DNA from: an uncultured bacterium
GTDB lineage: Bacteria > Patescibacteriota > Minisyncoccia > UBA6257 > GWB1-50-10
Reading direction: 5' to 3'
Length of the DNA: 64,000 nt
Assembly (NCBI GenBank): GCA_963713955.1
Contig: OY970216.1
Coordinates: 442,252-506,251, forward strand
Shown: positions 1,546 to 59,432 of the stretch, in pieces
How positions within the stretch are numbered: the first letter of the stretch is position 1
Layout: every line of letters begins with the position of its first letter
Program-made: the position numbers and the translations under genes
The notes under the pieces: generated by a model
What the model saw: only the letters and a program-made list of their open reading frames with translations
What the model was told of the DNA's origin: nothing
The model's database searches: none

Positions 1546-2025
1546 ATGGAAGAAGATAATAAAAAGAACGAAGAAATAACCAAGCTTGAGAAGGAACGAG
1601 ACGAATACCTGGACGGGTGGAAACGGGCCAAGGCGGATCTCATAAATTATAAGAAGGAGGAAGCGGAGCGGATGGAGCAATTCGTGAAATTCAGCACTCG
1701 AGCCGTTGTCTCCGATCTGATAGCCGTTCTGGACAGTTTCGATTTGGGCCTCTCCATCATATCGGAAAGCGACCCGGCCCGAAAAGGGGTGATTCTCATC
1801 AAGAACCAGCTGGAAGACGTTCTTCGGCGGTACGGCTTGGAGAAAATGTCGGTGAGGCCGGGGGAAACGTTCGATCCCGCGGTCCACGAAGCGGTGAAGA
1901 GCATCGATTCGGAAGCTCCGCCGGGAACGGTCGCCGATGAGCTTTCTCCGGGCTATCGGCTCCAGGGAAAGGTCATACGCCCCGCGAGAGTAAACGTTTC
2001 AAAGCAAAAAGATCAAGGTCAATAA
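1546..2025 (+). CDS. grpE: nucleotide exchange factor GrpE
   Basis: GrpE-like coiled-coil plus C-terminal beta domain; precedes dnaK. Confidence 0.85.
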   Translation: MEEDNKKNEEITKLEKERDEYLDGWKRAKADLINYKKEEAERMEQFVKFSTRAVVSDLIAVLDSFDLGLSIISESDPARKGVILIKNQLEDVLRRYGLEKMSVRPGETFDPAVHEAVKSIDSEAPPGTVADELSPGYRLQGKVIRPARVNVSKQKDQGQ

Positions 2026-2047
2026 ACAATAAAAAATAATAAAACAT

Positions 2048-3919
2048 ATGAGTAAAATTTTAGGAATAGATCTGGGGACGACCAATTCGGCGATGGCCGT
2101 CATGGAAGGCGGCGAGCCCCAGGTTCTCGAGAATAGCGAAGGTTTACGGACGACTCCTTCCATAGTCGCCATGTCGAAATCCAATGAGAGACTGGTGGGA
2201 CTTCTGGCGAAGCGGCAATCCGTCGTGAATCCCAAGAATACCATCTACTCGGTTAAAAGACTGATGGGGCGCAAATTCACCGATCCGGAAGTGGAGCGGG
2301 ACAAGGCGTGGCTGCCGTATGAAATACGGGCTTCGCAAAACGGCGGCGTCGAAATCAAAATGGGGGATCGCTGGTATACCCCCGAGGAAATCTCGGCGAT
2401 GGTTCTCCAGAAATTGAAGGCCGATGCCGAGGCGAAAGTCGGCGGCAAGATCGACGAAGCGGTGGTAACCGTTCCGGCCTATTTCGACGACAGCCAGAGG
2501 CAGGCTACCAAGAACGCCGGCGAGATAGCCGGGTTTAAGGTACGGAGGATATTGAACGAGCCGACGGCAGCGGCACTGGCCTACGGGATGAACAAGCAGA
2601 AAAATGAGCGCATTGTCGTTTACGATTTCGGCGGTGGGACGTTCGACATTTCGATCCTCGAAGTGGGGGACGACACGGTCGAAGTCAAAGCGACGGGGGG
2701 TGATACCCATCTTGGCGGAGACGATTTCGACAAGAAGATCATGGAATATCTCGTGGCCGAATACAAGAAACAAGAAGGCATCGATTTGTCCAAGGACACC
2801 TTGGCTCTCCAGCGGTTGAAGGAAGCGGCCGAGCGTGCCAAGCACGAACTTTCGACGGTCACGGAAACGGAGATCAATTTGCCGTACGTCACTTCCGACG
2901 CGAGCGGCCCGAAGCATTTTCTCATGAAAATCACGAGAGCCAAATTGGAAGACTTGGTGAGAGACATGATTGACCGCTCGATTGAGCTCGTGAAAGACGC
3001 CGTCGAATCTCCCTCTCCCAAGGGGGCGGGAATGAAACTCTCGGATGTGAACGAGATTGTTTTGGTCGGCGGACAAACGAGGATGCCGGCGATACAGGAA
3101 GCCGTGAAGAATCTTTTCGGCAAAGAACCTCACAAGGGGATCAATCCGGATGAAGTTGTCGCCGTGGGTGCCGCCATTCAAGCCGGAATACTTCAGGGCG
3201 ACGTGAAGGACATATTGCTTTTGGACGTGACGCCCCTCACCTTGAGCATCGAGACCTTGGGCGGCGTTGCGACCCCGATGATTCCCAAAAACACCACGGT
3301 TCCTACCTCGAAGACGCAGACGTTCTCGACGGCAGCTGATAGTCAAACTTCCGTCGAAATACACGTTGGTCAGGGAGAACGGCCGATGATGGTTGATAAT
3401 AAGACGCTCGCGCGATTCATTCTGGACGGCATACCGCCGGCGCCGCGGGGTATGCCGCAGGTGGAGGTTACCTTTGACATAGATGCGAATGGGATTTTGA
3501 CTGTGTCGGCCAAGGATAAAGCGACGGGCAAAGAGCAATCGGTGAAAATCGAGGCGTCGACTGCCTTGAGCAAGGAAGAAATCGAGAAACTCAAGAAAGA
3601 AGCTGCGGAACATGCGGCTGAAGATCAGAAGAAAAAAGAGCTGGCGGAGGTGAGAAATCAAGCTGAGACCACCATTTATTCCGCCGAGAAGGCGCTCAAA
3701 GATGCCGGGGATAAGGTGTCGAATGAGATCAAAAATTCCGTCACGGAGAGGATTCAGAAGGTCAAGGAAGTGAAAGATGGGACGAATGCCGAGGCAATCA
3801 GGAACGCTTTGAGCGATCTTTCGACAGAACTTCAGAAAATAGGCGAGGCAATGTATAATAAGCAAGGAGACAAGCCGGAGAACAAACAAGATGGAACCGA
3901 GCCTGCAAATAGTCAGTGA
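2048..3919 (+). CDS. dnaK: molecular chaperone DnaK (Hsp70)
   Basis: [31 protein letters not shown]-type motifs. Confidence 0.97.
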
Positions 3920-7914: not shown

Positions 7915-8952
7915 TCAGTTATGCTGCAGTATTTGCAATCCGTACATTTGGACCTGGGATACGGTAGCGCTGTTACCGAGATAAACAAGGAAGTAGGGTG
8001 AACCCCACGCGTTGCTGGTTTTGAGATAGATATAAGAAAAATAAGAGGCATTGCCGGTATTAGTTGAAACATTCGTGATATTTGAATCCCTGTCGTGGAT
8101 TTGAAATTGGCCATTGGCTCTATAAAAGAAGTTTATTTTATAAACGTTGTTCAATACAAAGGGTTGGGTCATAGCTCCCGTGTCTGTCCAGCTCCTTTGC
8201 GACTGATTCCCGCCTGTTGCATCGAATTCCAAAACTTGCCCATTAAAGCCATTTCCTGGCGAGGTTAAATTCCAAGTGAGATAACTCGGTGTGGGGTTAT
8301 CCCAGCCGGTAAAAGATTGTGCTCTATAAGTTGAGTTAATCATCAAGTTATTACTCCACAGTAAAGATAAGCTGCTCCCCACTTCATACGTTGAATCATC
8401 AAGCCCTCCATCCGTCGACACGACATCATTGCTTCCCCCATAGCCATATCGTTGGGATTCCATAGAGGCGGTTAATTCGTATTTCCCTCCGCTGGTGGTG
8501 TAGGTATAATAGAGGCCGGTCGATGATGAGTTTATGGGATCTATCGGGAGTTTCGATAGGGGAGATCCTGATGAAATGAGCGTCAGATTCACCGGTATCC
8601 AACCTGTGCCGTCCACCTTGGTGGAAGAAGCAGCTGGAACGCAATGATAGCTCCAGCCTGAAGGGAGAATGGGAAGAGACCATGATCCGCAGGTGGAAGA
8701 TGAATCCGGGAGGGAAACGTAGGTAGTCGATGCGGTTCCCAAGGGTTGGGTGAATTGATCCGCCGTGAAGAGAGATAAGGCGCTATTCAGAGCTGCGAGG
8801 TCTGAGAGGCGGGTGGAATCCCTTCCTTGAGCTATGAGTTGGGTTGGGTTCAGGACGAGAACCACGGCAGTCGCCAGAACGGCGAGAATTGCAATTACAA
8901 CGAGGAGTTCAATAAGTGTAAAACTGGCTCTATCGCGGAGATTCATTATCAC
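7915..8952 (-). CDS. type IV pilin-like protein (class III signal peptide, FTLIELLVVIAILAVLA) with conserved N-terminal module and divergent beta-rich C-terminal domain; paralog 1 of 3
   Basis: prepilin N-methylation motif; ~75% aa identity to N-terminal 170 aa of 34703..35887 and 58197..59432. Confidence 0.85.
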   Translation of the reverse strand: MIMNLRDRASFTLIELLVVIAILAVLATAVVLVLNPTQLIAQGRDSTRLSDLAALNSALSLFTADQFTQPLGTASTTYVSLPDSSSTCGSWSLPILPSGWSYHCVPAASSTKVDGTGWIPVNLTLISSGSPLSKLPIDPINSSSTGLYYTYTTSGGKYELTASMESQRYGYGGSNDVVSTDGGLDDSTYEVGSSLSLLWSNNLMINSTYRAQSFTGWDNPTPSYLTWNLTSPGNGFNGQVLEFDATGGNQSQRSWTDTGAMTQPFVLNNVYKINFFYRANGQFQIHDRDSNITNVSTNTGNASYFSYIYLKTSNAWGSPYFLVYLGNSATVSQVQMYGLQILQHN

Positions 8953-18112: not shown

Positions 18113-19237
18113 TTTAGACAGTCACTCGACAAGTTTTCTCGTCGTTTTTTCATTCTCTCACACTGCTATCTTCTCTGCAAACACCGAAGGCGGCATCCTG
18201 AGAGCGGAGTGGATTCTTGTATGGTTGTACTCCCAAAGCGTTCGGTAGATCTCCGCCACAAGTTCCCCTAAGGATCTGAACCGATTAGGATCGCCAAGAT
18301 CCATTTTGAATTTTCCGTAGAAAGATTCTTGGTATCCGTTCTCCCACGGCGATCCGGGGCGTGAGCGGGAGATGGTGATGCCGTAGCGCTCAAGCATAGC
18401 GATGAACGCCTTCGCTTCGTATTCCCTCCCGTTGTCAGAATGGAAGATCACGGGTCGCGGGCAATGGAAGAGCGCGTTCGCCAGAGTTTGGATGGTGAGC
18501 GTCGATCCCTTCCGGGTCGCCACATGAACGCCCATCAGTTGCCTCGTAAACAGGTTAAGGATCGTTGATACGTACAGCTTCTTCCCGTGAAAGACAAGCT
18601 CCGTGAAATCCGTCGCCCAGACATGGTTCGCATATGATGGCATAATGCCGAGGAGGAGGTTCGGGAAGTGCCGTTCCGCCTTGGATTTCCTGTATTTTCT
18701 CCCATGCCTGCGGTAGGGCTTGATGCCGTAAATCCGCATGACCCGTTGCGCTCTCGGTCTGCCGATGCCGAGCGCAATCGCCAGTCGGCGTGAGCCGTAT
18801 GAGGGATGCTCGTGAAGCACCTCCTCCGTCCGGACCTTTAATGCCCAATCCTTCTTGTCCTGCGTTGCGACGTAATAGAGCGATGAGCGCGAGACACCCA
18901 TGGCGCGAGCCAGGGCGGATACGTTCCTTTCCCTGCTCAATTCTTTTTTTGGGTCTGGGACAGCTTGATCGTGAGTTCACCGATCACTTCGAAGAGTTCC
19001 TGATTCTGTTTCTTTAGGCGATTGATTTCTCCCCAGGAGGGAGCGCTCGTGGCACCGGCGCCGAGCCATCCATACACGGTTGTCTCGTGGACGCCTGCAT
19101 CTTTTGCCGCTTCTGCGACGGAGACGCCTTCTTCCTTCACGCGGCGGACAATCTCCGCTTTTACCTCTTTCGCTACCCGATATCCTTTTTTGTTAGCCAT
19201 GACACAATGGTAATTTGTTCCGACCTTTGTGTCTAAA
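18113..19237 (-). mobile_element. IS3-family insertion sequence (copy 1): orfA 18937..19200 (HTH) and orfB 18158..18940 (DDE integrase) on minus strand; ends approximate
   Basis: orfA/orfB overlap typical of -1 frameshift; DDE core HSDNGREY...PWENGYQESF; terminal TTTAGACA(G/C) at both ends. Confidence 0.8.
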
Positions 19238-25427: not shown

Positions 25428-25727
25428 ATGAAAAAATATTCCATCGGAAAATCGAGGATACACGGTAAGGGAATCATTCTCTCTAAAGATGTTAAGAAAA
25501 ACGAGGCCATTTTTGTTTTCAAGGGAAAGGATATTTATTATTCTGGGGGGATCTGGTGGAAAGAACCGGACTCGCTCCAAGTAGGGTATATCCACTGGAT
25601 AAAGCCACTGGCCGGCTCTCCCGGAGCGTATCTGAACCATTCGTGTAATCCGACTGCCGGCATCCGCGGCAACAGGATTATCGTCGCGATGCAGCCTCTC
25701 AAGAAGTGTAAAGACCCCCAAAGTTAA
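25428..25727 (+). pseudogene. SET-domain protein (lysine methyltransferase fold), C-terminally truncated at the IS copy 2 boundary
   Basis: GKGIILSKDVKKNEAIFVFKG N-SET region and NHSCNPT (NHSCxPN) motif; post-SET ELxxDY region absent; ORF runs into IS end. Confidence 0.6.
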
Positions 25728-26824
25728 GACACTTTTTCGACAAGTTTCTGGTAGCGATTCGAGAACAGTGCAGGCGGCATCCTGAGGGCGGAGTGGATTC
25801 TCCGGTGGTTGTAGTCCCAGACCAGGCGATGGATCTCGTAGACCAGCTCTCCCAGCGATTTGAACCTCTCCGGATCGCCCAGATCCACCTTGAACTGGGA
25901 GTAGAAGGACTCCTGGTAGCCGTTCTCCCATGGCGATGACTTCCTCGATCTCGATATCCTGACGCCGAGGTTCAAAAGAGCTCCGGTGAAGATCCTTGAG
26001 CCATACTCCCTTCCGTTGTCCGAGTGGAAGATGTTGGGTCTCGGATGATGTTCCGCCGCGGAGAAGAGTGCCTGGAGGACCAGAGGCACCGAGTGGGTAT
26101 TCATCACGGCCCAGCCCACGATCTCCCTCGCAAACAAATCCATCACGGTGGCGAGATACAGGAACTTCCCTTGGTACGGGATGTACGTGAAGTCCGCCAC
26201 CCAGATATCGTTCAATCCTTTGGGGAAGTTCTTCTGAAGGAGATTGGGATACAGGATACTCGAGAAGCCCGTTTTCCTTGGCCTTCTGCCCCTTCTCCGA
26301 TATGCCTTCATCCCGAAGAGCCTCATCACCCGTTGGGCTCTTTTTTTGTTGATCTTGAGCTCCAAAGCCACTCTTCTGAAGCCGTATGAAGGATGGTCTC
26401 TCAAGACTGATATGATCCTTTCCTTGAGCGACCAATCCTTGGGCGATTGTTTCGAGACATAGTAGAGGGAGGCGCGGGAGAGGCCGAGTTCACGGGCAAG
26501 TTCCCACTTCGTCTTCTTCTGCTTTTTGATCAACGCTTTTTTTGAGTGCGTGAGGAGGCCAGGGTGAGCTCGCCCACGAGGGCGAGGAGCTCTTCGTTCT
26601 GGCGCTTGAGGCGGACGAGTTCACCGATCGTGGGGGTGCCTTTCACGCCCCTTCCCAGCCAGTTGTATATGGTGGCGGGATTCAGACCGTGTTCCTTGGC
26701 GGCCTGGACGACCGGGATCCCTTCCTCCTTGATTCTCTTCAATATCTGCTCCTTCACCTCGGGAGCAGTGCGATATGTTTTCTTCATGACACAAGGGTAT
26801 ATTGACTTCGACCTTTGTGTCTAA
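25724..26824 (-). mobile_element. IS3-family insertion sequence (copy 2): orfA 26530..26787, orfB 25724..26533; ~50% aa identity to copy 1, so a distinct IS of the same family
   Basis: DDE motifs, orfA/orfB overlap; ends TTAAGACAC ... GTGTCTAA homologous to copy 1 ends. Confidence 0.8.
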
Positions 26825-26903: not shown

Positions 26904-27063
26904 CTATTCTCACCGGTATAGATTTATCCGCTTAAACTCTCACTTTTTATTTTATCACTCCGGTTCGAATTCCGGGCGGGTCGTCAAAAAAACAGAATCA
27001 CGTCTCAAGATGAATGCCTACGCGTTTTCAGTAAGGATATCTATTTTTTGATATAATTAACTT

Positions 27064-27354
27064 ATGAATAAAAAGGTATTATTAATTGTTTTAATAGTCG
27101 TGGTTTTGGCCCTAGCAGGGGGCGGTTACTACTATTGGAAAATAAAAATGCAAAAAGCCCCTGAGGCTTCAAAGCCCGCGGCGCAACAAGCAACGGAGGA
27201 TATTCAAAAAACAGTAACTGGTGTTGCAGCTGACGTTGGCAATAGCGTTTCGCCAAACGTAACAACGCCGATTGTCACTCCGACTCCACAAGACGCCAAT
27301 CCCTATAACAAAACCAATCCTTTTTCAAATTTAAAAACCAACCCTTTCCAATAA
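27064..27354 (+). CDS. small membrane-anchored protein with C-terminal TNPF repeats
   Basis: N-terminal TM helix; NPYNKTNPFSNLKTNPFQ tail; -10 TATAAT at 27050. Confidence 0.5.
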   Translation: MNKKVLLIVLIVVVLALAGGGYYYWKIKMQKAPEASKPAAQQATEDIQKTVTGVAADVGNSVSPNVTTPIVTPTPQDANPYNKTNPFSNLKTNPFQ

Positions 27355-27363
27355 ATAGAAACG

Positions 27364-29583
27364 ATGAATAAAAAAACTTTAAGCGTTCTCGTTATTATTT
27401 CCGGAATTTTAGTTTCTGGCGCAATAATCGGTTTTGCTAAGGCCCAAATAACAACGAATCAGTCGGTGCAAACTCAGCCACCGCAACCGCAGGAACAACA
27501 AACGCCAGAGAACATCCAATATCCCATAAAGGAATTGGGCAATTGCCAAAGCAAAGAAGATTGCAAGGTTTTTTGCGATGATTCCAAAAATTCCGATGCC
27601 TGTCTGGCTTTTGCCCAGCAAAATAATTTGATGAGTTCTGATGAAATAGTCACCGCCAAAAAATTTATGGATAACGGCATGGTCGGCCCGGGCGGCTGCA
27701 AGGGACAAACCGCATGCGATCAATACTGCGGCAACTCCGATCATTTGGAAGAATGCATCACTTTCGCCCAAAAAAATGGGATGATGTCAGCCCAGCAACT
27801 GCAAGATTCCCAAAAGGTTTTGGCGGCTATCAAGAACGGACTAAAACCTCCTGCTTGCGCCGGCCCTCAACAATGCAACGCATATTGCAGTAGCCCCGAC
27901 CATATGGAGGAGTGTATGACCTTTTCTTTGGCGGCTGGAATTGTACCGGACAATCAGAAAGCACAAATGCAAAAGACCTTGGATGCCATAAAACAAGGTG
28001 TAAAACCACCGGCTTGCCAACCAACCCCGCCGCCCGGTCAAATACAATCCAGCCAGTCCGGACAGAGTCTGCCGGCATGCGACACGTATTGCAGTAGCCC
28101 CGACCATATGGAGGAGTGTATGACCTTTTCTTTGGCGGCTGGTATGGTGTCGGACAATCAGAAGGCACAGGTACAGAAAACTTTGGATGCCATAAAGCAG
28201 GGCATCAAACCACCGGCTTGCCAACCTAACCCACCTGGCCAGTCCGGCAAACCCGGACAGCCTGGACAATCCAGTCAAACCAATCAATCCAGTCAATCTG
28301 GACAGGGACTGCAACCATGTGACCAATATTGCGCAGACCCCACTCACGTTGAAGAATGCGTGAAATTTTCCGTGGCAATGGGAAACATGACCGAACAGCA
28401 GGCGCAAACTGCCATAAAAAACGGCAACAAGGGTCCCGGCGGATGCATCGGTAAAGATGCCTGTGACGCTTTCTGTAATAATCCCGACAACCAAGAAACT
28501 TGTTTCAATTTTGCCAAAGACAACGGAATGGTCCCGCAAGACCAACTTCAACAAATGCAAGCTAGCCAGCAAAAGATGAAAGATTCTTTCAGTCAGATAC
28601 CTGCGGAGGTTCTAACTTGCATAACGAACTCGGCGGGTGCCGATGTAGTTGAGGAGATGAAAAGCGGTTCGTTTATACCCAGCCAAAGCGGTGAAGCCAT
28701 AAACCAGTGTTTTCGGAATTATGCTCCGCAGAACCAAGTACCGAATCAAAATCAGCCTGGACAGCCAGGGCAAGGCGGCCCGAATAATATGCCCGGAGAT
28801 TTAAGGGATTGCCTTCAATCTCAAGTTGGCGAAGATGGTCTGGCGAAAATTCAATCAGGAAATGTTGATGACCCCGTTTTAATGGAAAAAGCAAAAACTT
28901 GCTTTGATAAATACGGCCAGCCTGGTCAATCTAATCAACCGATGAATCCAGGACAGCCTAACCAGTCGGGACAATCCGGTTCAATGCAACCAATGATGCC
29001 CGGTGTTCAGTTTGCTTCGGGAACCGGTCCGAATGTGCCGTCATCTCCCCAGCAGGGAGTCATGTCGTCCGGAACCCAATTTGCTCCCCGTACAGGACCG
29101 AGTATGCCGCCGCCAAATTTTCAAAATAATTTTCCCGGCGGACCGGCAAGCGGCACAACTATTGTGGGACCAGGCGGTTGCAAGACTCCCCAAGAATGCG
29201 CGGCGTTCTGCGCTAGCAATCCTCAAATCTGCAACAATTTCCAGCCGCCATCTTCCGGGCAGCAGGGGCAAATGCAGCCGATGATGCCTCCGCAAGGAAT
29301 GAAGTCTGGCACAGAGTTCGCTTCCGGAACCAGTCCGAATATGCCACCGCAGGAAGGAATGCCCCTGAATCCGACAACGCCGCTCAATGAGACGAAATCT
29401 CCTCCCGGAGGAACGCAGCCTCAGTCCGGAACGCAAGAGATGATACCGCAAGGCGGAATGCAGCCATTCGTGTCTCCGCCTCCTCCGCCTGCGCCCGGAA
29501 CTACATCGACCACATCTGGCTTGCAGAACCAAGAATTCCTCGGGGCATTGATTGAATTGTTCCGGCCCGTATTCGGCCTCTAA
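27364..29583 (+). CDS. secreted cysteine-rich repeat protein: signal peptide, seven CX5CX3CX8C modules, Q/P-rich linkers, proline-rich C-terminus
   Basis: Sec signal MNKKTLSVLVIISGILVSGAIIGFAKAQ; modules such as GPGGCKGQTACDQYCGNSDHLEEC...FAQKNGMM; repeats 3 and 4 near-identical at DNA level. Confidence 0.75.
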   Translation: MNKKTLSVLVIISGILVSGAIIGFAKAQITTNQSVQTQPPQPQEQQTPENIQYPIKELGNCQSKEDCKVFCDDSKNSDACLAFAQQNNLMSSDEIVTAKKFMDNGMVGPGGCKGQTACDQYCGNSDHLEECITFAQKNGMMSAQQLQDSQKVLAAIKNGLKPPACAGPQQCNAYCSSPDHMEECMTFSLAAGIVPDNQKAQMQKTLDAIKQGVKPPACQPTPPPGQIQSSQSGQSLPACDTYCSSPDHMEECMTFSLAAGMVSDNQKAQVQKTLDAIKQGIKPPACQPNPPGQSGKPGQPGQSSQTNQSSQSGQGLQPCDQYCADPTHVEECVKFSVAMGNMTEQQAQTAIKNGNKGPGGCIGKDACDAFCNNPDNQETCFNFAKDNGMVPQDQLQQMQASQQKMKDSFSQIPAEVLTCITNSAGADVVEEMKSGSFIPSQSGEAINQCFRNYAPQNQVPNQNQPGQPGQGGPNNMPGDLRDCLQSQVGEDGLAKIQSGNVDDPVLMEKAKTCFDKYGQPGQSNQPMNPGQPNQSGQSGSMQPMMPGVQFASGTGPNVPSSPQQGVMSSGTQFAPRTGPSMPPPNFQNNFPGGPASGTTIVGPGGCKTPQECAAFCASNPQICNNFQPPSSGQQGQMQPMMPPQGMKSGTEFASGTSPNMPPQEGMPLNPTTPLNETKSPPGGTQPQSGTQEMIPQGGMQPFVSPPPPPAPGTTSTTSGLQNQEFLGALIELFRPVFGL

Positions 29584-29721
29584 ATATTTCTACTCGCGTT
29601 AGTTCGAATCCAGTCGGGTGAAAAGAGAACACCAATCCGAATTCTAAAAAGGTCACGGGTCTCGGATTAGAACTGATATTCAAAAAAGATAGAATTTAAG
29701 GCTCTCCGGTCTCGCTCCCTC

Positions 29722-29779
29722 CTTCGCTAAAGCTTCGGACGGGCACAGCGATACTGCGCTGACTGTGGCTGCCGGGCTT
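29722..29779. repeat. 58-bp direct repeat (family F4 copy b) overlapping the last 14 nt of tRNA-Gln
   Basis: see 26846-26903. Confidence 0.65.
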
Positions 29780-29839
29780 GGATTCGAACCAAGATACTGG
29801 GCTCCAAAGGCCCATGTCCTACCGTTAGACGACCCGGCA
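29766..29839 (-). tRNA. tRNA-Gln (anticodon TTG), CCA encoded
   Basis: manual fold: acceptor TGCCGGG/CCCGGCA, anticodon loop CTTTGGA, T-loop TTCGAAT. Confidence 0.8.
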
Positions 29840-29884: not shown

Positions 29885-30571
29885 ATGAATCAGATTCTAC
29901 TTTCAATCTTTCTAAGTCCAGCTTTGAATTACATTCCTGAGATATTTTTCGGGCTGCTGATTTTATTCGCCGGAATACGGTATTACGCGAGGCTCAGGAG
30001 AGGGGACCTGGAAGGAATCAAGACAAGCCGATTCTTCGGGAAGCTCATTCTCGTCGCGATCGGCTTCAAAACCCTCTACGCGGCGCTTCTGACGTGGGGA
30101 CAATACGTTATCTGGAAATCGAGTACATTGGCATCGGCGCTCCTTTCGGAAGCGGTCGTGAAAGACAAAGCTGGCATTGCGGGAGCGTTTCCCAAACTTT
30201 TCGACGAGAAGGGCGGTTATTTCCTTTACTACTCCTTGAGCCACTTCTGGCTCGAATTCGGAATAACGCTCGTTCTCGGCCTGGCTTTCTATCTTCTCCT
30301 TATGTCGTTTCAAAAGAAGAACCCGCGGTTTCTCACGTTGGCTGATGCAAGGCTCGGACTTCTGGGCGGAATCACAGCTGGCTGGCCTGGCTTCGTCGTG
30401 TACCTTTTCGGCTTCGCCCTGATCTTTCTCCTCTATGGTCTTGTGAGGAAATTGGTACTGAAAGAAGAATACACCCCTATTACAGAGCCGCTTTTCATCG
30501 CGGCCTTCCTCGCCGCCGCCTTCGGCTTCTGGATTATAAACTTCTTGGGACTGTCAGCTCTAAGGATTTAG
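29885..30571 (+). CDS. polytopic membrane protein, possible A24 prepilin-peptidase-like
   Basis: LADARLGLLGGITAGW resembles the GDFKLLAALGAW catalytic-Asp region; weak. Confidence 0.35.
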   Translation: MNQILLSIFLSPALNYIPEIFFGLLILFAGIRYYARLRRGDLEGIKTSRFFGKLILVAIGFKTLYAALLTWGQYVIWKSSTLASALLSEAVVKDKAGIAGAFPKLFDEKGGYFLYYSLSHFWLEFGITLVLGLAFYLLLMSFQKKNPRFLTLADARLGLLGGITAGWPGFVVYLFGFALIFLLYGLVRKLVLKEEYTPITEPLFIAAFLAAAFGFWIINFLGLSALRI

Positions 30572-34639: not shown

Positions 34640-34702
34640 TAGGTCGTCTCTTAAAAAATGAGACGACCTTTTCCCTTTTCGGTATGTTATAATAAAGTGG
34701 AA

Positions 34703-35887
34703 ATGTCCATCCATTCTCGTTCTTCCTTCACCCTGATCGAGCTCCTGGTAGTCATCGCCATCCTTGCCGTCCTTGCAACCGCCGTCGTCTTGGTCTTGAA
34801 TCCCGCCCAGCTCTTAGCTCAAGGAAGAGATTCAACCAGGCTCTCTGATCTCTCTGCCTTGAATAGTGCCCTCTCCCTCTTCCAGGCAGATCAATATACC
34901 CAGTCCTTAGGGACTCCAAATACCCTCTACGTATCAGTTCCCGATACCACATCCACCTGTGCCAATCTGGGACTGTCTTCTCCTCCTATAGGATGGGCCT
35001 ATCACTGTGTTCCAAGCTCTTCCTCAACAAGAGTAGACGGAACAGGCTGGATTCCCGTGAATCTTACCCTCCTATCATCAGGATCCCCTTTATCCAAGCT
35101 CCCGATAGACCCTACGAATACCACTAGTTCTGGACTCTACTATACCTACGTATCAGGAGGCTCCTATGCCTTATCCAGTGCCTTGGAATCACAGAAATAC
35201 CTTGTATCCACCGCATCCCAAGACCAAGGCTATGATCCTGGGAGGTATGAGATCGGTTCTGACCTATCCCTTATTGGAAGGAGTGAAGGATTAGTAGGAT
35301 GGTGGCCCCTGGATGGAGACCCGGGGGACAGGAGTGGGAACGGGAACAATGGGACGTGGTATGGATCCATGATCGGAGGTTCTTACTATACGGGAGGGAA
35401 GATCAACCAGGCTGGGAACTTTAATGGGACGGATGATTATGTGAATGTTCCAACGAGCCCGTTATTACATCCCTTGAGCTACGTTACGGTTTCTGCCTGG
35501 GTAAATATGACATCGTCAACTGGCCCATTTGATGGAATCACTACTGATAACGGCAACGACTACTATTTGCAAGCACAATGGCCCAAGTGGCGTTTCTATG
35601 TCATTAACACCTCTAGTGTATATAAAGATGTCTTTTCGATAAATAACATTACGACTGGGCAGTGGTATTTTTTAACCGGTGTCTACGACGGATCGAACGT
35701 TTCCCTATATGTCAATGGCGTTCTACAAGCACAAAATCCTCAAACAGGGAACATACAAAATTCGGCCGGAAACATAACAATATCAACGGGTGGACGTCAT
35801 TTTTATGGAACGATCGACGACGTCCGCATCTACAACCGAGCATTGTCCGCGGCAGAGATTCAGGCGATTTATAATGCACAAAAGTAG
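34703..35887 (+). CDS. type IV pilin-like protein with C-terminal LamG/concanavalin-A-like lectin domain; paralog 2 of 3 (ORF track start 34658; probable ATG 34703)
   Basis: FTLIELLVVIAILAVLA prepilin motif; C-terminus ...DDVRIYNRALSAAEIQAIYNAQK typical of LamG_3 jelly-roll domains. Confidence 0.85.
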   Translation: MSIHSRSSFTLIELLVVIAILAVLATAVVLVLNPAQLLAQGRDSTRLSDLSALNSALSLFQADQYTQSLGTPNTLYVSVPDTTSTCANLGLSSPPIGWAYHCVPSSSSTRVDGTGWIPVNLTLLSSGSPLSKLPIDPTNTTSSGLYYTYVSGGSYALSSALESQKYLVSTASQDQGYDPGRYEIGSDLSLIGRSEGLVGWWPLDGDPGDRSGNGNNGTWYGSMIGGSYYTGGKINQAGNFNGTDDYVNVPTSPLLHPLSYVTVSAWVNMTSSTGPFDGITTDNGNDYYLQAQWPKWRFYVINTSSVYKDVFSINNITTGQWYFLTGVYDGSNVSLYVNGVLQAQNPQTGNIQNSAGNITISTGGRHFYGTIDDVRIYNRALSAAEIQAIYNAQK

Positions 35888-58166: not shown

Positions 58167-58196
58167 TTTCTCTTGTCTTGTAGTATAATTAACCTA

Positions 58197-59432
58197 ATGA
58201 ATCTCAGAGGTAGAGAATCCTTCACCCTGATCGAGCTCCTGGTCGTGATTGCGATCCTTGCCGTCCTTGCGGTGGCCGTCGTCTTGGTCTTGAACCCTGC
58301 CCAGCTCCTGGCTCAAGGAAGAGATTCGACTCGTTTGTCTGATCTTTCCGCTCTGAATAGCGCCCTCTCCCTCTTCCAGGCAGATCAATATACCCAGTCC
58401 TTAGGGACTCCGAATACCCTCTACATATCAGTCCCTGACAATGCCTCCTCCTCCTGTGGTTCCTTAGGCCTCCCAACTCCTCCCCCAGGATGGGCCTATC
58501 ACTGTGTTCCCCAAGCTTCTTCCACGAAGGTAGATGGTTCCGGCTGGATTCCCGTGAATCTGACCCAAATCTCATCAGGAAGTCCCTTATCCAAGCTTCC
58601 GATAGACCCTGCCAATTCTTCCTCCTCAGGACTCTACTATACCTATACGCTCTCCAGCAACGGGAAGTATGAATTGACCTCAGAATTGGAGTCCCAGAAA
58701 TACGTTCCTACCATGGCCCAGGATGGAGGTTCCTATGACGGTCTCTACCAGATTGGTTCCCAGGTGGATATCACTCCTCCCTTCCGGAGCTCTGGACTCA
58801 TGGGGTATTGGCCGTTCGACGAGGGGAGTGGGACCACGGCATACAATTCCTCGGGGAATAATAACAATGGGAGCTGGAGCGGGGCGACGCCGTATTATAC
58901 AGCCAGCGCGAAGGTGGGAGCGTACGCTGGGAATTTCAATGGGAGCAATGATATCGTTACCTTACCGACAGGCAGCACTCAATTAGAGACACCCAGCATA
59001 ACTGTTTCTGCTTGGATTAATTTTACGGCCGCTACGAGTAGTAACTATGATATCTTTCAGAAGAAGCGTCCCTATGGCAATTACCGCGGCTACGAACTTT
59101 ATATAAACCTCAGCAATCAAGCACAATTTGATATCGGAAATGGCTCAGCGTATATTACGGGTCCGTCATCCTCAGTTTCTAAGAATACATGGACTTTTAT
59201 TGTAGGAAGCTATGATGGCAATAACATCAACATATATGTCAATGGAACCCTAAAATCTACTGTAGCGAATAATACCGGTATTAGTTATTCTGGGGGTAGT
59301 AGTCCGGGGACATATATAGGCACTGACAGTGGTAATGCTAATTACTTTACCGGCTTCATGGACGACGTCCGCATCTACAACAGGGCATTATCCGCCGCGG
59401 AGGTCCAGGCGATCTATAATGCACAGAAATAG
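58197..59432 (+). CDS. type IV pilin-like protein with C-terminal LamG-like lectin domain; paralog 3 of 3, located inside the S10 operon (ORF track TTG 58173; probable ATG 58197)
   Basis: ~88% nt identity to paralog 2 over the first ~500 bp and the last ~70 bp; divergent middle. Confidence 0.85.
   Translation: MNLRGRESFTLIELLVVIAILAVLAVAVVLVLNPAQLLAQGRDSTRLSDLSALNSALSLFQADQYTQSLGTPNTLYISVPDNASSSCGSLGLPTPPPGWAYHCVPQASSTKVDGSGWIPVNLTQISSGSPLSKLPIDPANSSSSGLYYTYTLSSNGKYELTSELESQKYVPTMAQDGGSYDGLYQIGSQVDITPPFRSSGLMGYWPFDEGSGTTAYNSSGNNNNGSWSGATPYYTASAKVGAYAGNFNGSNDIVTLPTGSTQLETPSITVSAWINFTAATSSNYDIFQKKRPYGNYRGYELYINLSNQAQFDIGNGSAYITGPSSSVSKNTWTFIVGSYDGNNINIYVNGTLKSTVANNTGISYSGGSSPGTYIGTDSGNANYFTGFMDDVRIYNRALSAAEVQAIYNAQK

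Follow-up and report, generated by a model that had tools for sequence, protein, structure and literature searches.

A putatively exported protein of tandem four-cysteine helical modules, encoded with a small membrane protein gene, in a Paceibacteria-type bacterium of the Candidate Phyla Radiation

The gene for a 739 amino acid (aa) protein was examined in a 64000 bp stretch of DNA, here called the window, from an uncultured bacterium of the Candidate Phyla Radiation (CPR; Patescibacteria) (GenBank accession number OY970216.1; coordinates 442252–506251). A first-pass annotation had described it as encoding a large secreted protein built from seven cysteine modules and lacking any recognised homologue. 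The open reading frame (ORF) was recovered as described (Table 1), and a gene for a 96-aa single-pass membrane protein was found directly upstream. The two genes form a cassette, and the larger product, here called the Cys4 protein, carries tandem four-cysteine (Cys4) modules that are predicted to fold as three-helix units and may form a cell-surface rod.

The Cys4 protein contains 32 cysteines, whereas most of the 76 ORFs in the window encode 0–3 and many none. The window proteins are thus strikingly poor in cysteine, and this one is an extreme outlier. Cysteine density is 7% across residues 60–400, and glutamine makes up 12.9% of the whole protein. By inspection, the N-terminus consists of MNKK, a hydrophobic stretch and AKA followed by Q, without a twin-arginine motif, in agreement with the n-region, h-region and AxA site of the Sec signal peptide proposed earlier. 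This region is conserved among homologues (...ANAQT), and the protein looks like one exported via the Sec route.

Seven modules are present, as the first-pass annotation had reported, but the literal C-x5-C-x3-C-x8-C spacing occurs in only four of them, beginning at aa 61, 112, 165 and 361. The modules starting at C218 and C286 retain C-x3-C-x8-C, with 20 and 32 Q/S/G/P-rich residues separating Cys1 from Cys2, and the seventh, starting at C606, has the spacing C-x5-C-x3-C-x6-C without the F(A/S)xxNGM segment that had been ascribed to every unit. The pattern is not due to chance, the mean number of strict motifs in shuffled sequences of the protein being 0.002. Two DNA segments overlapping modules 3 and 4 (27873–28031 and 28077–28235) share 86% DNA identity and 87.5% protein identity, and are similar rather than near-identical, as had been stated. 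The insert in module 5 includes a 9-nt tandem repeat (28267–28298), and scans for tandem repeats, promoters and terminators were otherwise uninformative.

A second type of repeat, which the first-pass annotation had missed, was found mid-protein, where C419-x29-C449 and C483-x29-C513 lie in a central helical domain. The possibility that these two-Cys units are degenerate Cys4 modules was rejected (hhalign probability 1.6%). Beyond this domain, the protein is of low complexity apart from module 7. The QPGQ/PGQP linkers and the repeated GT..FA motif seen in the first pass are both present, the latter in three copies of GT[QE]FA[SP][GR]T[GS]P (aa 547, 570 and 649). The tail ends with a proline run and a short amphipathic or hydrophobic helix (EFLGALIELFRPVFGL; predicted at residues 727–732). 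A proline run followed by a short hydrophobic or amphipathic segment also ends most (about 45) of 60 homologues inspected, commonly as ...PPPP(S)SSFLQGxQxLLANVLxAF[RK].

Table 1. Location of the two-gene cassette and of the parts of the Cys4 protein in the window
Feature	Coordinates	Strand	Basis
Partner gene, 96-aa single-pass membrane protein	27064..27354	+	ends 9 nt before main ORF
Main ORF, secreted Cys4-module protein, 739 aa, including stop codon	27364..29583	+	ORF, Cys pattern, homologues
Sec-type signal peptide, aa 1-27, putative cleavage between AKA and Q	27364..27444	+	by inspection; predicted local distance difference test (pLDDT) <50
Module 1, aa 56-106, C61-x5-C67-x3-C71-x8-C80, three helices	27529..27681	+	Cys pattern, AlphaFold2 (AF2)
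Module 2, aa 107-159, C112/C118/C122/C131	27682..27840	+	Cys pattern, AF2
Module 3, aa 160-212, C165/C171/C175/C184	27841..27999	+	Cys pattern, AF2; overlaps DNA repeat copy 27873-28031
Module 4, aa 213-280, C218-x20-C239-x3-C243-x8-C252	28000..28203	+	Cys pattern; overlaps DNA repeat copy 28077-28235
Module 5, aa 281-355, C286-x32-C319-x3-C323-x8-C332, Q/S/G/P-rich insert	28204..28428	+	Cys pattern, AF2
Module 6, aa 356-410, C361/C367/C371/C380	28429..28593	+	Cys pattern, AF2
Central helical domain, aa 411-520, C419-x29-C449 and C483-x29-C513	28594..28923	+	Cys pattern, AF2
Disordered Q/P/G/M-rich linker, aa 521-600, two GT/VQFA..TGP motifs	28924..29163	+	full-length AF2, motif scan
Module 7, aa 601-626, GPGGC606-x5-C612-x3-C616-x6-C623	29164..29241	+	Cys pattern, AF2
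Disordered Pro/Gln/Met-rich tail, aa 627-739	29242..29580	+	full-length AF2

The structure of modules 1–3 (aa 51–214) was predicted using AF2 with 58 homologues, giving an all-alpha model with three helices per module (pLDDT 91.7; predicted template modelling score (pTM) 0.77). In module 1, the helices span model residues 14–22, 24–36 and 42–53, where model residue 1 is aa 51. Helix 1 bears Cys2 and Cys3 with a separation of four residues (one turn), helix 2 has Cys4 at its middle, and Cys1 is in the loop that leads into helix 1. The full-length model (pLDDT 70, pTM 0.55) is ordered over residues 50–520, with pLDDT >90 outside the inserts, and again over module 7, a shortened two-helix version (pLDDT 79–88), and is disordered at residues 521–600 and 627–729. 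Module 6 has helices at residues 364–371, 374–386 and 392–410, the third of them long, and the central domain has a pLDDT of about 90 except at aa 458–473. Disorder is predicted for the inserts that follow Cys1 in module 4 (pLDDT <50 at aa 228–231) and in module 5 (aa 294–315). Because the modules abut without a linker at a fixed 51/53-residue pitch, the modelled array most likely behaves as a stiff rod and not as beads on a string, and the high pTM of the three-module model argues for defined contacts between modules.

The refuting outcome named in the first-pass annotation, a profile match to a characterised family such as the zinc ribbon or the EGF-like repeat, did not occur, and an all-alpha fold was predicted. 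When the whole protein was scanned against Pfam and NCBIfam at E≤10, only two sub-threshold spurious matches (SEP and TusD) were returned. Against the sequences in PDB, the three-module profile gave only a spurious match to triosephosphate isomerase (E=0.037), the single-module profile gave none, and the central-unit profile nothing below E=0.49. Foldseek searches with the predicted structures, a check that had been proposed, found nothing at E<0.3 in PDB or BFVD. The best PDB matches were an unrelated helical protein for the three-module model (E 4.1) and a designed pentatricopeptide repeat protein for the full-length model (E 0.37, TM-score ≤0.14), and the best match among the viral folds of BFVD had an E value of 1.3. 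Thus, the earlier view that the pattern belongs to no known disulfide-rich or metal-binding domain holds for Pfam, NCBIfam, the PDB profile searches and Foldseek.

Individual candidates were also considered. A zinc ribbon or treble-clef was rejected, as the protein lacks any CXXC, the spacing is C-x5-C-x3-C-x8-C, and the confident model is all-alpha. An EGF-like domain was rejected on the four cysteines per unit, the helical prediction and the lack of a Pfam match at E≤10, and Sel1-like repeats (PF08238) on the lack of a Pfam match and the 51–53 aa three-helix repeat. The twin CX3C/CX9C (CHCH) arrangement does not apply, as each module has one CX3C, with Cys1 in a loop and Cys4 single on helix 2. 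An Fe-S cluster protein of the ferredoxin or SPASM type was discounted on the Sec-like N-terminus without RR and the lack of a match in Pfam or NCBIfam. For GA, FIVAR and protein A domains, the architecture of tandem three-helix units in a secreted protein is seen here in six consecutive modules behind a signal peptide, but the resemblance is architectural only, as there was no Pfam match, the PDB profile searches were empty and the Foldseek values were as above. Pfam detects no Kazal domain (PF00050/PF07648) in the Cys4 protein itself, and this domain occurs only as an insert in some relatives. A literature search found no paper containing the full CX5CX3CX8C pattern, and papers containing CX5CX3C (defensins and SPASM Fe-S motifs) were judged unrelated. 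Nothing relevant was found in the literature on CPR cysteine-rich secreted proteins, Parcubacteria surface proteins or CPR disulfide systems.

The claim that the protein has no recognised homologue was contradicted, although all of the relatives are unannotated. At E≤1e-3, the whole protein retrieves 727 homologues, of which none has a Pfam domain and, among those with a name, almost all are called 'hypothetical protein'. Where an organism label is given, it is that of a CPR lineage, namely Paceibacterota or Nomura-, Jorgensen-, Yanofsky-, Magasanik-, Nealson- or Portnoybacteria. Profiles A1, A3 and A6 represent three modules, a single module and the central unit, and alignment A2 the partner protein. 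A search of 1.84 billion representative proteins using A3, which has 54 positions and the query as its first sequence, matched at least 1,849 clusters (50% identity) at E≤1e-3, of which 1,017 also passed E≤1e-30, in proteins of 377–1,555 aa with up to 13 matched stretches each. A search for the module in other CPR genomes had been suggested, and at least 235 species-representative genomes were found to carry the family. The 80 listed, among them the complete Wolfebacteria genome CP011209.1, are all labelled as CPR/Patescibacteria lineages or unclassified metagenome-assembled genomes. Together with the homologues, they bear out that the bacterium belongs to the CPR.

Many homologues share both the architecture of the Cys4 protein and 42–74% identity with it. 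The usual layout is a signal peptide, six N-terminal modules, one or two C-x29/30-C units, a low-complexity linker, an x6 mini-module and finally a tail rich in Pro and Gln. Among the 120 closest homologues, the number of modules per protein is 6–8 (mode 7), a single x6 module in the position seen here is typical, and the first two-Cys central unit is conserved across the family (A6). The first three modules are spaced exactly 51 and 53 residues apart in 104 of 121 proteins. The fourth and/or fifth module often has an insert of 20–69 residues after Cys1, and some relatives add short C-x6-C loops. The module consensus reads G-P-G-G-C-K-G-K-E-E-C-[DE]-A-[YF]-C-x-N-P-[DE]-[HN]-M-E-E-C, then I-N-F-A-E-E-N-G-L-M-S-E-E-E-L-x2-A-K-K-x-L-A-A-I-K-K-G. 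The query carries the family signature of G-P-G-G-C-x5-C-[DE]-x-[YF]-C-x8-C-x2-F-[AGS] at a pitch of ~52 aa after a signal peptide. All four cysteines are aligned in 1,934 of 2,022 module instances, the remainder being alignment truncations and one real substitution, and mean column identity in the three-module alignment A1 is 66%. Judged from these comparisons, the 739-aa protein is real and under selection.

Most relatives have no other recognisable domain. Among 48 long representatives, three carry Laminin_G_3 and about four carry Kazal-like inserts, the remainder being without a Pfam domain. Laminin_G_3, which is lectin-like, follows 9–10 modules in the three distant members (E about 1e-25), and the Kazal-like inserts were found in P0139 (E=4.5e-7), P0035 (E=6.7e-5) and at least two further members. 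The subfamily of P0143, P0218 and P0242, which has 9–10 modules and Laminin_G_3, also has an extra N-terminal domain of ~150 aa (...FKKDPSSxLFTLTIxDPxGIxxFSL...). Its C-terminus differs from that of other members and is rich in cysteine (...CSSYFSSVPxCxYxGxPxSQNYxYCKQCYP[DE]R), and neither of these terminal pieces has a match in Pfam.

The product of the upstream gene begins with MNKK and an N-terminal transmembrane (TM) helix and has a conserved C-terminal NPYNKTNPFSNLKTNPFQ motif, corresponding to the invariant N-P..N-P..K.N-P-F tail of alignment A2. Matches of this protein to the PilO and SpoIIIAH models in Pfam were below the curated cut-offs, covered the TM and linker region (aa 3–72), and were judged not meaningful. 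A homologue of ~90 residues is encoded immediately upstream of the large gene in 77 of 84 related loci, and the window has the same arrangement, with the gene for the small NPF-tailed membrane protein directly upstream. No other neighbour is conserved beside the family across the 84 loci. The genes near the cassette in the window, for a 228-aa membrane protein, DnaX, PEBP and PNPOx, are not conserved next to it elsewhere. The 228-aa protein (29885..30571, +) is multi-pass, with no Pfam match and no counterpart beside the family at other loci.

A perfect TATAAT box (27051–27056) lies 7 nt before the ATG of the partner gene, and no Shine-Dalgarno sequence was seen before this gene or before the 739-aa ORF (spacer AATAGAAACG). 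The mRNA of the operon may be leaderless. The 300-nt gap just downstream of the ORF contains a tRNA-Gln(TTG) gene (29766..29839, –). The sequence right after the stop codon (29584..29625; ...gttagttcgaatccagtcgggtg...) resembles a T-arm/3' fragment of another tRNA, for which ARAGORN made no call.

Two diverged copies of an IS3-family insertion sequence are present in the window (25724..26787, – and 18158..19200, –), one of them only about 280 nt upstream of the cassette. In each copy, an orfA of the HTH_Tnp_1 type overlaps an orfB encoding an rve integrase by 4 nt, the usual frameshift layout. The window also includes three paralogous type IV pilin-like genes (7915..8952, –; 34658..35887, + and 58173..59432, +), whose products all have an N_methyl motif and one C-x15-C pair and are related over about 150 aa at the N-terminus. 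Two of the three end in a Laminin_G_3 head (E about 1e-30), the head domain that is also fused to some relatives of the Cys4 protein.

It is most likely, from the arrangement of cysteines in these sequences, that the four in each module form two disulfides rather than bind metal. The strictly two-Cys C-x29-C units could not make a metal site alone, which favours disulfides, as do the C-x6-C loops and Kazal-like inserts of relatives (Kazal domains need three disulfides). The exported pilin-like proteins point the same way, as all three keep exactly one C-x15-C pair in a window that is otherwise poor in cysteine. A Sec route without a twin-arginine motif speaks against Fe-S clusters or other cofactors that are inserted in the cytoplasm. 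The connectivity would most plausibly be C1–C3 and C2–C4.

The main rival explanation is that the four cysteines of each module coordinate Zn(II), Cu(I), Ni or Fe(II) in a tetrathiolate site. With seven such sites, the protein would capture metal at the cell surface, buffer it or pass it on, and might thereby supply ABC-3 (ZnuBC-type) importers or buffer the metal released by cation diffusion facilitator (CDF) exporters. The near-invariance of the four cysteines across the 2,022 instances is consistent with this, as are a conserved D/E that follows Cys2, an H/N at the fourth position ahead of Cys4 and an EE preceding Cys4. In the model, the layout of one cysteine in a loop, an i/i+4 pair on one helix and a fourth on the neighbouring helix could build a tetrahedral site, and reduced thiols would persist in anoxic habitats. 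However, CX3C on a helix is not a usual pair of Zn ligands, and the searches in Pfam, NCBIfam and PDB found no metal-binding family, sequence or fold. The other cysteines of the family are in isolated pairs and Kazal-like inserts, as is typical of disulfides, and the position-specific conservation of the modules and their fixed number look architectural, unlike a metal sponge. Metal binding by the modules was considered unlikely.

Some genomic contexts bear on the same question. In loci L011 (coordinates 1995–3500), L015 (2015–3528) and L024 (1401–2931), genes for a ZnuC-like ABC ATPase and an ABC-3 permease (PF00950, E=8e-54) directly precede the small and large genes on one strand. No gene for a ZnuA-type binding protein was found within the ~2–3.6 kb fetched upstream of them. 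An ABC-3-type transporter gene is 2.5 kb away in L078, and the cassettes of L001 and L002 are followed, at a distance of 17 nt, by a Cation_efflux (CDF) gene (L001:6761–8128). Such adjacency was seen at only about 5 of 84 loci, in about 3–4 independent lineages, against a chance expectation of roughly 1, itself a rough estimate that takes a genome to have about 900 genes. The link is thus above chance but weak. A functional connection of the cassette to metal transport is possible from this gene order. The fuller proposal that the module is an unrecognised extracellular metal domain, and the cassette a CPR-specific system for metal capture or buffering that replaces or feeds ABC-3 (Znu/Mnt-type) uptake, is distinctly improbable.

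A redox-active thiol protein, acting as an extracellular shuttle of electrons or disulfides, for example a thiol-disulfide buffer or an Fe-S carrier, would account for the high cysteine density, and CX5CX3C occurs inside some SPASM Fe-S motifs in the literature. However, pre-assembled clusters cannot be exported behind a Sec-type rather than Tat-type signal. The protein has no CXXC motif and its predicted all-alpha fold is not thioredoxin-like. In addition, no redox genes neighbour the family at the loci examined, and CPR bacteria are generally fermentative. This explanation is very improbable indeed.

The reading preferred here is that the Cys4 protein is a Sec-exported, disulfide-stapled helical rod, serving a Paceibacteria-type CPR bacterium as a cell-surface scaffold or adhesin stalk together with its membrane partner. 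It is put forward tentatively, with a probability judged to be a little short of even. After export via Sec, two disulfides per module would staple small three-helix bundles, and the linker-free modules would give a stiff rod, six modules of ~52 residues being followed by the two-unit helical domain in an all-alpha array over residues ~50–520. The disordered C-terminal third, with the mini-module and the terminal amphipathic helix, could cross or attach to the cell envelope, and the co-transcribed membrane protein might dock or anchor the rod through its conserved extracellular NPF-rich tail. The rod would then act as a spacer, stalk or envelope scaffold, which in some relatives displays binding heads in an adhesin-like role.

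A surface or adhesin role is favoured by the Laminin_G_3 heads on three distant members, the presence of the same head on two pilin-like proteins in the window, and the Pro/Gln-rich disordered tail. The adhesin or matrix function raised in the first pass has gained support from the Laminin_G_3 and Kazal-like relatives, the tail and the conserved partner gene, but is still unproven. The rod might instead polymerise into an S-layer-like coat or extracellular matrix and not act as an individual stalk. To our knowledge, the protein of the surface layer reported on CPR cells is unidentified, and no paper identifying it was found in the literature search. In favour of a lattice, the family is widespread in Parcubacteria-type CPR lineages, with no second copy in the window, its architecture is fixed across homologues, and every module position is strongly conserved. 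Against this, about one third of the protein is disordered and of low complexity, which is atypical of S-layer lattices, the lectin-like head fusions are better suited to a display stalk, and no similarity to any S-layer family was found using Pfam or Foldseek. A lattice is accordingly rated as quite unlikely.

Several points weigh against the disulfide-stapled, anchored rod. No known sorting signal, LPXTG included, was seen that would explain anchoring, and a classical transmembrane anchor would be longer and less polar than the C-terminal helix. The rigidity of the rod rests on pTM and fixed spacing, not on a structure. Support for the disulfides is indirect, from sequence features, and as paired loss of cysteines was never seen in 2,022 modules, the connectivity was guessed from helix geometry. 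Many CPR bacteria inhabit anoxic groundwater, and among the few ORFs of the 64 kb window that were scanned, none was recognised as encoding DsbA or VKOR. The few related loci that adjoin metal transporters fit the metal-binding alternative.

CPR/Patescibacteria make up a large share of bacterial diversity. So far as has been established, these bacteria depend on other cells or live attached to them, yet most of their surface proteins are unannotated. Envelope or attachment structures have been seen on CPR cells, and the family described here is a concrete candidate for them. The module deserves a domain-family entry, as it defines a large CPR-restricted family with a confident, unmatched predicted fold, a fixed architecture and a dedicated membrane partner. 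If the cysteines do bind metal, the module would represent a new class of extracellular metal site.

The module, its predicted fold (at the sensitivity of Foldseek), the family and the two-gene cassette are undescribed, but surface proteins of the same broad kind, with tandem helical repeats stapled by cysteines, are already known. Among the closest analogues are the GA/FIVAR array of Ebh from Staphylococcus aureus and protein A/GA, secreted stalks of three-helix units of ~50–70 residues with little or no linker and a low-complexity wall-spanning region on the C-terminal side, in which some units or appended domains bind ligands. The Cys4 protein is likewise secreted, with consecutive three-helix units and a low-complexity C-terminal part. 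However, the Ebh and protein A bundles are cysteine-free, whereas the Cys4 protein has four cysteines per unit, and instead of an LPXTG signal there is a dedicated gene for a small membrane partner.

The Helicobacter Hcp proteins, another of the closest analogues, are built of Sel1-like repeats and are also secreted bacterial all-alpha repeat proteins with helical units cross-linked by cysteines, arranged in Hcp as a solenoid. Their repeat has two helices, about 36 residues and one disulfide (C-x7-C), whereas the Cys4 unit has three helices, about 52 residues and x5/x3/x8 spacing. In the small Tim and CHCH/Cox17 proteins, cysteines one helix turn apart are similarly paired with those of a neighbouring helix, and can bind Zn or Cu when reduced. 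These proteins are mitochondrial and single-copy with symmetric CXnC on both helices, whereas the Cys4 module has one CX3C, is repeated seven-fold and is part of an exported bacterial protein.

Zinc ribbons and EGF-like repeats are also small modules defined by their cysteines and can occur in tandem. Zinc ribbons, with paired CXXC knuckles, and EGF-like repeats, with six cysteines, are beta-rich and differ in cysteine spacing, whereas the Cys4 module is predicted to be all-alpha and matches the models of neither. In the copper storage proteins Csp1 and Csp3, helix-borne cysteines, including CX3C, face a common core, and Csp1 is exported, but no sequence or fold match to the Csp proteins was found using Pfam or Foldseek. 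The Csp proteins place 13–18 cysteines in one long four-helix bundle and use the Tat route, whereas the Cys4 protein has four cysteines in each small three-helix unit and a Sec-type signal.

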